From Escherichia coli (GTDB lineage Bacteria; Pseudomonadota; Gammaproteobacteria; Enterobacterales; Enterobacteriaceae), in assembly GCF_009931435.1 (NCBI RefSeq), contig NZ_CP043414.1: a stretch of DNA of 64,000 nt; one strand, given 5' to 3'. The position numbers are program-made. Shown one piece after another: positions 18,001-20,585 of the stretch. Position 1 is the first letter of the stretch. Each line of letters begins with the position of its first letter.

Positions 18001-20585
18001 CTCCATTGCCTCTCACGAAAGGAACTGGACACACTGATCAAGCACGAATTACAACTGATGCTGGCTGAAGGCTTTGACAAGTCCCCTATTTCCGCCAAGG
18101 CCCTGCATATTCGGCTCAAGGCAAAAGGTATCGTTAACGGTGGTTTAAGTACGCTGAGCAGCCTTGAGCGAAAACGCCTAATTGCTGCCTATGTTGATCA
18201 GCAACTTGGCCCGTTGAATCTACGCCCAAAAGAAAAACAGCAATACGTCAACCGCAAAACCCGTCAGGCCTTGCTGGCCAGAAACCAGCAGTTGCAGGCG
18301 GAAGTCAGAGAACTGCAAGACCAACTGGCGCAGAATACCCTATCGTTGATAGAAATTGTCAAAGCGGTAAAAATCAATACGGTTATTCCGGTGGAAAGTC
18401 TGTTGCCAAACATGTAATTCGGGAGTTACACAAGTCGTCATAATGCTGGTTATAATTTTCGGCAAAGGGTATGGACGATTTATTTCCGTCATTCTGTATA
18501 TTGCTTACCTTCCCAAATTTCTCCAACCGTTAGTTGGAGAAATTAGATGAGTCGTAAATCATGAATAAACCCCTTGCTCTATTCGAAAAATGAGCATGGC
18601 AACTTTCAACACCCCCTCTTCTGAGTCCATTATCTCAGAGGGCGTTTTCCACTGTAATGCTCTGTTTGGTTCATTGCACCAGTTTAATGCTGCACTTTCG
18701 TTACCTTCAAAAAGATCAATAGCCTTTTGAAGAACATCATTTTTTGTCAGCATGTTTTACACCTGAAGACGTTTTGAGTGCTTCGATAAGACTACTTCGC
18801 TCTTCCTCTGTCATCCGGGATATGAGCAATGCAAGTTCTGCTGTTGTCTGATCATCACAAAAAGGCACGTTTAACTCTGCCGCCATCCGTCGAATCGTAT
18901 CAATATCGGGGACATGGCGCCCTTTCTCATAATGATTCATACGACTGCTAGCCGATGCGGGATCAAAGCCAACATGAAGAATTGATAATTGCCGTGCCGA
19001 GCAGAGAAAATGAATTCCGGAAACTTTCTCTTGAGCAAGATAAAACACATATTAAGATAAATGAAAAAATAAAAACACTGATTAGGATTGGTAATAAAAA
19101 TATTACAATAAGGCAATGAATTTTAAAAAGGATTTGAAGTTTAATACAGTCATGAAAAAGAGAGGGCAAAGCCGACCCCGCCCTCTCCCTTCATGCACTG
19201 ATAAGCCTCACTAATAGGAGTGTTAGCAGCGCGTACCACTGTATGCTAGACCTGAAAAATATAATCTCAGCCAGTCCCAGATGCAACCTTTAACACTTCA
19301 ACGCAACAAATTAAACAACGAATAGCCACAAACGTGTAGACAGTGCACTGATACGGATAAAAGTAACGCTCCTGAATTGCTCAATCAATGATATATACCC
19401 TGTTTTACTGACATATCTGACAGCGGGTGGATTTCCTTCAATTATTGATATAACACCATACGCACTACATCTGTCTCCACCAGAATATGAGGTGAAATTG
19501 TTGCGCACCGGTTAATCCGGGTGTACTGGTCAAACTGTTTTTACGGTGCGCCTGTTTTATAGCCTTCAGTTGCGCAATGCGTCGACTTCGCATGGTTTTC
19601 CTCATGACTGCCGCTTTATCATTGCGCAATTCGCCGATGTAGTCGGTGCCCCCCGGAAAATCAAACGGTTCTGGTTGTTCTCTGTACTGCTTCAGGGCGT
19701 ATAGTCCGATACCTCAGCAGACGGGTTTTCCCCGGAGCGAGGCCTCTGGGGTTCATAATTAATCGTACAGCCAAAGTACCAAGCGTTCGGCCGGCTGGGC
19801 GGCCGGCTGGGCTTGCTGGTCAGTTTGTTCCAACACACATTAAGCATCTCCAGTCCGCTGGGCAGGCGGTCCGGCAGGCTGGTCAGCTGGTTATTACTCA
19901 CATCAAGCACCTTCAGCCTGACGGGCAGCACCGGCAGATGGATCAGCTGGTTATTACTCACATTAAGCGTCCTCATATAGCCGGGCAGCTCCGGCAGGCT
20001 GCTCATGAGGTTAAAACGCACATCAAGCGTCACCAGCCCGGCGGGCAGCGCCGGCAGGCCGGACAGCTGATTATTACTCACATCAAGCATCACCAACCCG
20101 GCGGGCAGGACCGGCAGGCTGCACAGCCGGTTTCTACTCACATCAAGCTTCTCCAGACTGGCGGGCAGCACCGGCAGGCTGCACAGCTGGTTTTTACACA
20201 CATAAAGATGCTTCAGCCCTGCGGGCAGGACCGGCAGGCTGTCCAGCAAGTTTCTTCTCACATAAAGCTCCTCCAGCCCGGTGGGCAGCTCCAGCCCGGT
20301 GGACCTGAAGAGATTGTTTCCACCCACATTAAGGTGCTTCAGCCCGGCGGGCAGGACAGGCAGGCTGCACAGCCGGTTTCTACTCACATCAAGCTTCTTC
20401 AGCCCGGCGGGCAGGACCGGCAGGCTGTCCAGCAAGTTTCTTCTCACATAAAGCTCCTCCAGCCCGGTGGGCAGGACCGGCAGGCTGCACAGCTGGTTTC
20501 CACTCACATCAAGCTTCTCCAGCCCGGCGGGCAGCTCCGGCAGGCTGGTCAGCATCAGATTTGCCAGTTCTAGTTCCAGTGCTGA

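Follow-up and report, generated by a model that had tools for sequence, protein, structure and literature searches.

The attL and attR sites of integrative elements, such as the islands inserted at tRNA genes, combine a conserved core with imperfect arms and bracket horizontally acquired DNA, and one of the two copies lies in a gene remnant; the direct repeat pair described here has these same traits. The pseudogenes of decaying genomic islands are a second point of reference: they too are truncated pieces of backbone genes in direct orientation, joined at microhomology junctions, in islands that have lost their integrases and taken up IS insertions. In the RES-Xre antitoxins (ParST, MbcTA) an Xre-type helix-turn-helix (HTH) stands beside a PF09722 domain, as it does at this locus, and the NEL E3 ligases of the IpaH/SspH/SlrP type carry an LRR domain like the one in the SspH2/SlrP-like gene that lies between the two repeats.

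The stretch of DNA analyzed, hereafter the window, comprises 64,000 nucleotides of the Escherichia coli chromosome (contig NZ_CP043414.1) and contains a decayed island between hipA, which ends at 14669, and the yde/F9 fimbrial operon, which starts at 27428. In this island a direct repeat had been noticed and read as a recombination scar or a partial duplication of an HTH gene, bracketing the LRR-effector/IS100 segment and possibly marking the ends of an inserted effector cassette. The partial copies and the bracketing are real; the role as cassette ends was not sustained. Judging from alignments to intact genes, the repeat is the overlap of a 5′-truncated and a 3′-truncated fragment of related HTH gene copies, and it is present only because the deletion endpoint of fragment A and the truncation endpoint of fragment B both retain codons 28-48.

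Extent and coding content of the repeat pair

A repeat search placed the pair at 18914-18980 and 23493-23559, as 67 nt in direct orientation, 91% identical and spaced 4579 bp apart. The original prediction of a 65-bp repeat with about 91% identity was thus borne out, except that the identical core measures 34 bp (18925-18958 and 23504-23537) and not 30 bp. The 64-kb window contains this core exactly two times, against a chance expectation of 0.00 (100 dinucleotide-preserving shuffles, up to 3 mismatches); since the sequence is also not of low complexity, a chance or low-complexity match was rejected. Local alignment of the copies with extended flanks, which had been proposed as a check, upheld the repeat, and the similarity ends abruptly on both sides. 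When the copies were aligned to intact reference genes, the genuine homology was found to cover 61 bp with 4 mismatches (copies A and B in Table 1). The final ~6 bp of the repeat (18975-18980) lie past the deletion junction of copy A, and their agreement with copy B is microhomology.

Both copies encode the peptide VGFDPASASSRMNHYE on the minus strand. Copy A lies within an HTH fragment, as the assignment to an HTH coding sequence had anticipated, and copy B starts 247 bp upstream of the start codon (23246) of the effector-like gene, in agreement with the distance of about 250 bp first given. Copy B is likewise a coding remnant, while coding had previously been attributed to copy A only.

Table 1. 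Features of the decayed island around the two HTH fragments (window positions; L001, L013, and L031 are loci with an intact backbone, L001 serving as the reference)
Feature	Position	Strand	Remarks
145-aa backbone gene	17980..18417	+	homology to intact modules from 18019
DUF2384 (Xre/MbcA/ParS C-terminal) ORF, 64 aa	18559..18753	-	PF09722, E 1e-10; overlaps the end of the HTH gene
HTH fragment A	18737..18974	-	codons ~28-110 and stop; lacks the N-terminal HTH part and promoter
Repeat copy A	18914..18974	-	HTH gene codons ~28-48; homologous to L001 2733-2793
Deletion junction	18974..18980		7-bp imperfect microhomology; ~595 bp of the reference (L001 ~2800-3394) gone
3′ end of the 186-aa backbone gene	18975..19116	+	reference residues 139-186 (tblastn); 94.4% to L013
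Backbone downstream of the 186-aa gene, ~420 bp	19117..19540		93-95% to L013/L031
LRR gene, 3′ part	19692..20687	-	SspH2/SlrP-like, NEL-less, effector-like
IS100 (istA/istB), 1954 bp	20688..22641	-	terminal inverted repeats 20688-20715 / 22614-22641
LRR gene, 5′ part	22642..23246	-	in-frame 9-bp (TSK) repeat at 23024-23095
Repeat copy B	23493..23553	-	HTH gene codons ~28-48; truncated 3′ end of the orphan fragment
Orphan HTH fragment B, 176 bp	23493..23668	-	L001 2733-2908; codons 1-48 and 32 bp upstream

The intact backbone and its island family

The matches on the A side and on the B side fall on one and the same 333-bp gene (L001 2544-2876), annotated as a 'helix-turn-helix transcriptional regulator' of 110 aa. 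BLAST against plasmids located the intact reference locus in Klebsiella and E. coli, on large plasmids of the IncHI1B type, where a site-specific integrase gene comes first; other E. coli strains carry an intact backbone at the identical hipA-adjacent chromosomal site. The backbone consists, in order, of two tyrosine integrases, a 787-788-aa gene, a 145-aa gene, the DUF2384 and HTH genes on the opposite strand, and a divergent 186-aa gene that is separated from the HTH gene by an intergenic region of ~96 bp. The intact HTH gene scores above the Pfam cut-offs (HTH_3, 36 bits; HTH_19, 35.4), and the integrases of E. coli strains with intact islands give Phage_integrase matches.

Variable, mostly anti-phage cargo follows the 3′ end of the 186-aa gene in intact islands: a type I restriction-modification system in L012, retron Ec78 PtuAB in the plasmid copy L028, a ThiF/MPN/exonuclease cluster in L029, and HamA in L031. 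The integrases and the variable cargo around the intact backbone indicate that the HTH gene is one of the conserved core genes in a family of integrase-borne islands with mostly defence cargo, and this variety fits the expectation for a recurrently used integration hotspot. At the ends of one intact island (L013), no att-like direct repeats of at least 10 bp were found. The main text of a paper on defence-island hotspots in E. coli (PMC10121019) contains no mention of hipA, hipB, ydeP, ydeQ, lsrK, 'tyrosine recombinase', or 'two integrases'.

In RefSeq genomes the locus sits between hipBA and the ydeQRS/F9 fimbrial operon. The island in the window lacks both integrases and the 788-aa gene, keeping ~80 bp of its left end (17939-18018) before the 145-aa gene, and a tblastn search with all backbone proteins detected no other backbone remnants anywhere in the window. 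Past fragment B, from 23669 onward, lie a 129-aa gene and an ankyrin-repeat gene. The stretch 22507-27500 is 100% identical in L003 (GCA_009899175.1), and identical copies of a SIR2-like protein (14868-16220), a 225-aa ORF, and the 651-aa ankyrin protein are present in many E. coli assemblies. The ankyrin ORF reads as 654 aa from a GTG start; the 651-aa form is the one with exact protein matches. A literature search for the LRR/ankyrin locus found no paper.

Fragment A and fragment B

On the A side, window 18019-18980 corresponds to L001 1776-2799 and window 18974-19293 to L001 3388-3709. The ~595-bp deletion between these two blocks took out codons 1-27 of the HTH gene, the intergenic (promoter) region between the divergent genes, and about three-quarters of the 186-aa gene, so that HTH codon ~28 now adjoins the final 48 codons of the latter. 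By tblastn, fragment A corresponds to residues 21-110 of the reference HTH protein at 87% identity, and it carries an additional 12-bp (LNYL) deletion. On HTH_3 it reaches 18.4 bits, below the cut-off of 23, and covers profile positions 27-52 only, the back half of the domain. The 103-aa ORF at 18737-19048 on the minus strand is a chimera: its first ~23 codons lie in what remains of the 186-aa gene, read in the antisense direction. Within the backbone 3′ of this remnant there is a terminator-like hairpin (19163-19179), and the end of the backbone block, 19322-19540, is 86.5% identical to L002.

Fragment B is bordered by non-homologous DNA on both sides. Its coding part (23493-23636) begins with a GTG and matches residues 1-48 of the reference HTH protein at 98% identity (tblastn); the corresponding ORF has 59 aa (23457-23636), and its N-terminus, MSEKNPIPERLKEARCRAGLSQRSLGLLVGFDP..., resembles the start of an Xre-type HTH protein. 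At the DNA level the fragment is 97.7% identical to L012 and 96% to L001 and L002. Its exact allele, which has G, A, and G at overlap positions 11, 46, and 49, is absent from the intact genes found (best 97.7%), and the species-representative genomes contain no exact match. On HTH_31 the fragment scores 22.4 bits, below the cut-off of 27, over profile positions 5-39, the front half of the domain. In agreement, PGAP labels it in four RefSeq genomes as a pseudogene, 'helix-turn-helix domain-containing protein, incomplete, missing C-terminus'.

By descent, both fragments are homologs of an intact member of the Xre-family HTH proteins, with DNA identities of 91-98%, and in neither does a complete HTH domain of ~55 residues exceed the gathering threshold of Pfam.

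The LRR gene and IS100 between the copies

Proceeding from copy A, the segment between the repeats consists of the backbone remnant (18975-19540), ~150 bp of further sequence, the LRR gene (19692-23246, minus strand), which is split by IS100, and 247 bp before copy B. The inserted element is a typical IS100 of the IS21 family: besides its istA/istB genes and terminal inverted repeats, it is 99-100% identical to annotated IS100 and is flanked by the 5-bp target duplication CATGC (20683-20687 and 22642-22646). The IS100-free loci (L004, L007, L008, L010, L011, L014-L017, and L020-L025) continue colinearly through the insertion site, and the LRR protein that they encode is intact, with 522-537 aa. 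The spacing of 4.5 kb was thus rejected as a single unit; IS100 arrived independently and later, and without it the copies are ~2.62 kb apart.

The intact 537-aa allele has LRR matches only, with no NEL domain (PF14496) in Pfam or NCBIfam searches, while NEL-bearing homologs of the protein have 700-860 aa. Over its start and a further 83 bp upstream (23223-23329), the LRR gene shares 83% identity with prophage-borne genes of E. coli that encode 767-aa NEL ligases, and the DNA homology to NEL genes ends at 19815, ~40 codons short of the stop of the LRR gene. Because it shares its start with these genes and has no NEL domain beyond the point where the homology ends, the LRR gene seems to be a NEL effector gene from which the catalytic domain was lost. 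A protein search found close relatives of the LRR protein in Escherichia only, and a peptide-pattern scan of species-representative genomes found none.

Distribution among genomes and the search for an empty site

The same A and B junctions occur in ~25 related loci, in which each fragment is 98.4-100% conserved and A and B remain ~91% identical to each other. IS100 is missing from nearly all related loci whose contigs span the LRR gene. One locus, L014, has lost copy A and kept the LRR gene, which indicates that the repeat pair is not under selection.

For the empty site, the query was a reconstructed joint (A-left, the core, B-right, and 23669-23800), with a threshold of at least 80% coverage. 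Among 5,426 complete E. coli genomes, not one reached at least 80% of this joint; the best matches were intact HTH genes, aligned over query positions 1-390 and ending exactly at window position 23668. Conversely, all 17 complete genomes that match at least 72% of a query running from B to the ankyrin gene also carry the LRR gene (16 of them at a coverage of at least 80%), as do all eight distinct contexts in the larger assembly collection. The comparison suggested by the original prediction, a search for related genomes without the intervening segment, thus turned up none, the outcome it had named as speaking against itself.

The layout of the locus leads to the same result. A simple insertion would place the remaining intergenic sequence, along with the 186-aa gene, past copy B, but fragment B is cut after 32 bp of upstream sequence; it would also place foreign DNA just inside copy A, but what follows there is the same backbone (18975-19540). 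Because the remnant of the 186-aa gene adjoins A and does not lie beyond B, a simple insertion with a 65-bp target duplication is ruled out, by this geometry and by the lack of an empty site in the 5,426 genomes. A cognate recombinase or transposase for the repeats was not found: the only such genes inside the segment are those of IS100, and the window lacks the backbone integrases. Finally, A and B differ at 4 of 61 positions while each is 98.4-100% conserved, which argues against a recent duplication in situ. The proposal that the copies mark the ends of an inserted effector cassette is therefore not supported, in view of the geometry, the missing empty site, the divergence of A and B, and a spacing inflated by IS100.

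Origin of the two fragments

The fragments are probably what is left of two paralogous backbone copies that decayed into A and B, the repeat being their overlap. Two related islands would have accreted in the same orientation at the hipA-adjacent integration hotspot, and deletions would then have eroded both, leaving three illegitimate junctions, namely the 595-bp deletion in A and the two ends of B. The LRR gene would be part of the former cargo region of the first island, and IS100 would have entered it later, within the lineage of this strain. Support for this history comes from the divergence of 4 in 61 positions between A and B, which exceeds the diversity of either fragment among strains several-fold, and from two of these four differences (C/T at overlap position 7 and G/A at position 46), which match polymorphisms among intact modules. 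Neither two intact tandem backbones at the site nor an intact second island, with a B-type HTH gene next to the 129-aa and ankyrin genes, was found, and the sequence between the two fragments yielded no att site.

The affinities of the individual pieces are of no help here. A-left is closest to L028, L001, and L012, A-right to L013 and L031 (94-95%, versus 82-87% for the others), and B-right is 99.1% identical to L012, but from the HTH gene to the 3′ end of the 186-aa gene the intact modules show a mosaic structure of their own, so that lineage affinity neither discriminates between scenarios nor proves further copies. An origin of A-left and A-right from different modules, which would call for a third copy, was dropped, as intact modules are equally mosaic.

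An unlikely course of events, and the nearest viable form of the original proposal, is a Campbell-type crossover within the 61-bp homology, between a resident and still complete HTH gene (A-left plus B-right) and an effector-bearing circle. On this circle, 61 bp left of an HTH gene would have been joined to the 3′ end of the 186-aa gene, and the circle would also have borne backbone sequence, the LRR gene, and ~160 bp of unassigned DNA. Such an event would insert the whole 2.6-kb segment with the homology duplicated at both ends, and it reproduces the observed order and orientation exactly. A-left and B-right are also similarly diverged from L001 (2.8% versus 3.5%) and from L028 (3.4% versus 3.5%), and the gene reconstructed from them aligns in one piece to intact genes at 93.8% identity. 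According to the MEPS concept, reportedly due to Shen and Huang, RecA-dependent exchange has a minimum identical length, and the 34-bp core is about that long. However, the crossover needs the same three illegitimate junctions as the history with two islands and, in addition, an inefficient exchange on 61 bp at 93% identity. The one informative marker is misplaced, as the L013-type C at overlap position 7 is found in A and predicted in B; the segment contains no integrase or replication function, and neither the 5,426 complete genomes nor the larger collection contain an empty site. If such an event did take place, eroded backbones without integrases would act as landing pads for new cargo without a site-specific recombinase.

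It is very unlikely that a single HTH gene was partially duplicated in situ, by replication slippage or template switching, and that the copies then diverged. Such a duplication agrees with the direct orientation of the copies at a distance of 2.6 kb without IS100, and both are nearest to the same group of reference alleles (L012/L002/L028). Against it, the 4 differences in 61 positions amount to 6.6% between copies that are each 98.4-100% conserved among the carrier strains, and two of them match polymorphisms that pre-exist in intact modules. In addition, 115 bp of N-terminal codons and upstream sequence are found in B only and the C-terminal part in A only, making the two complementary, overlapping pieces. 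A role of the two copies as working attL/attR sites, or as long target-site duplications, of a mobile effector cassette is highly improbable: they do bracket an effector-like gene as direct repeats, and the backbone family is integrase-borne, but no recombinase gene lies inside or beside the segment and the backbone integrases are deleted, the left end of the segment is backbone and not cassette DNA, the sole transposase inside is that of IS100, an element with inverted repeats and a 5-bp duplication of its own, the 5,426 complete genomes yielded no empty site, and L014 keeps the LRR gene without copy A.

Functional meaning and annotation

Neither fragment can encode a working regulator, because A lacks the first 27 codons and the promoter, and B lacks more than half of the protein. 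A promoter and terminator scan around both copies gave matches at chance level, and we infer that the repeat itself is functionless. Identical stretches of the length of the 34-bp core are near the minimum for RecA-dependent homologous exchange, so that a rare deletion of the LRR segment is conceivable; the core is at most a weak substrate for such a RecA-dependent deletion, and no deletion of the LRR segment between the repeats was observed.

The repeat pair is a product of ordinary mobile-island erosion, which is already partly reflected in the RefSeq annotation. Both HTH pieces should be annotated as pseudogene fragments, the chimeric 103-aa ORF (18737-19048) should not be named a regulator, and the repeat is unsuitable as the boundary of an 'effector cassette'. 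In a wider context, the junction between hipA and the yde fimbriae of E. coli is a site that islands with a conserved backbone and varied defence cargo use recurrently, and where in a minority of strains the island has been eroded to a patchwork that keeps the LRR gene and the ankyrin-repeat gene.

Comparison with known systems

The locus departs from attL/attR pairs in having no recombinase and no empty site, in the backbone that lies just inside copy A, and in a repeat that is dispensable, as L014 demonstrates. In contrast to the RES-Xre antitoxins, the HTH (110 aa) and the DUF2384 (64 aa) are separate overlapping ORFs, both in the window and in intact modules, and no match to a RES toxin was detected in the neighboring 145-aa, 186-aa, and 788-aa genes with Pfam and NCBIfam. 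The HTH/DUF2384 pair is instead divergent from the 186-aa gene, an arrangement like that of a mobile-element regulator switch and unlike RES-Xre, and in the window the HTH member of the pair is disrupted. As for the IpaH/SspH/SlrP ligases, these possess the NEL domain that the LRR gene lacks, and the LRR gene of the window, unlike them, is also split by IS100. With the pseudogenes of decaying genomic islands, of which the tandem-island stage would here be reconstructed rather than observed, the two HTH fragments show no essential difference.

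The LRR gene and its coding microsatellite

The LRR gene (19692-23329, upstream stretch included) appears to derive from an E3 ligase effector of the NEL type by loss of the NEL domain. Its start and 83 bp of upstream DNA (23223-23329) share 83% identity with the genes of 767-aa NEL ligases in comparison loci L018 and L019, which lie in lambdoid prophages with the Q antiterminator on one side and a holin gene on the other. This homology stops at 19815, about 40 codons short of the stop codon of the LRR gene. The 9-bp TSK repeat in the same gene is a hypervariable coding microsatellite, with seven perfect units in the window and from two to nine across 16 related loci, and the called proteins of 522-537 aa differ, with one exception, by steps of three residues. 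Strains also differ in how many 60-bp LRR units they carry, with proteins that range from 403 to 537 aa.

Features of the island in the window
Feature	Position	Remarks
ISNCY-family element	14746-17938	3.19 kb; imperfect terminal inverted repeats 14745-14770 / 17914-17939
SIR2_2-domain gene	14868-16220	passenger within the inverted repeats of the ISNCY-family element
In-frame 9-bp tandem repeat TCTTGCTGG	23024-23095	minus-strand coding, TSK; N-terminal region of the LRR protein
129-aa ORF and 651-aa ankyrin-repeat protein	within 23829-26343	directly right of fragment B, the orphan HTH piece
Island debris	26344-27100	ankyrin gene to fimbrial operon; RefSeq genome annotation

The two ends of the island

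The left chromosome/island junction falls at the exact position of the ISNCY-family element, apparently a mobile IS through which a candidate defence gene, its SIR2 passenger, is spread. A 5-bp duplication, ATGTT (14741-14745 / 17939-17943), borders the element on both sides. Loci L014-L017 lack the element. The stretch 14746-17866 is 99.2% identical to copies elsewhere in chromosomes, where the surroundings are unrelated (L005/L009, adjoined by lactate-utilisation and hypothetical genes). In the assembly collection, 687 blocks list the SIR2 protein. In one of the loci that lack the element, L014 from E. coli RMDEC465, about 266 bp without a match to the window (9751-10018 of that locus) replace 18689-18972, including repeat copy A in the truncated HTH gene.

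On the other side, the entire stretch from fragment B through the ankyrin gene occurs in just 17 of 5,426 complete E. coli genomes, at this locus every time. The 129-aa ORF gave no family match, and some strains have lost the gene by deletion (L015 and L016 lack 23732-24162). Beyond the ankyrin gene, RefSeq genomes carry an HTH fragment and a transposase fragment of an IS481-family element as well as an alpha/beta hydrolase fragment, debris which is consistent with a heavily eroded right end of the island.

The backbone and its cargo

Loci at the hipA-adjacent site or with the same backbone (L012, L013, L023/L025, L028, L029, L031) were compared. The backbone, for which no element family name was found in the literature searched, consists, in order, of two tyrosine integrases, a 788-aa gene, a 145-aa gene, DUF2384, the HTH gene and a 186-aa gene, with strong mosaicism between the last two in intact modules. 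Its anti-phage cargo differs by strain: type I R-M, retron Ec78 PtuAB, a ThiF/MPN/3'-5' exonuclease cluster or HamA. Apart from these cargo-bearing backbones stand L023/L025, eroded LRR/ankyrin loci without integrases, in which an SMC-like/MComp1/Cap4-nuclease-like trio occupies the place of the SIR2-IS unit of the window.

The DUF2384 ORF is wholly missing from several intact modules (L013, L029-L033). Unlike RES-Xre systems, no RES toxin lies near the HTH and DUF2384 ORFs, and the HTH and Xre/MbcA/ParS C-terminal (DUF2384) domains, usually fused in RES-Xre antitoxins, are here encoded by two separate ORFs that overlap by 17 nt (18559-18753; 2366-2876 in L001, the intact plasmid backbone locus).
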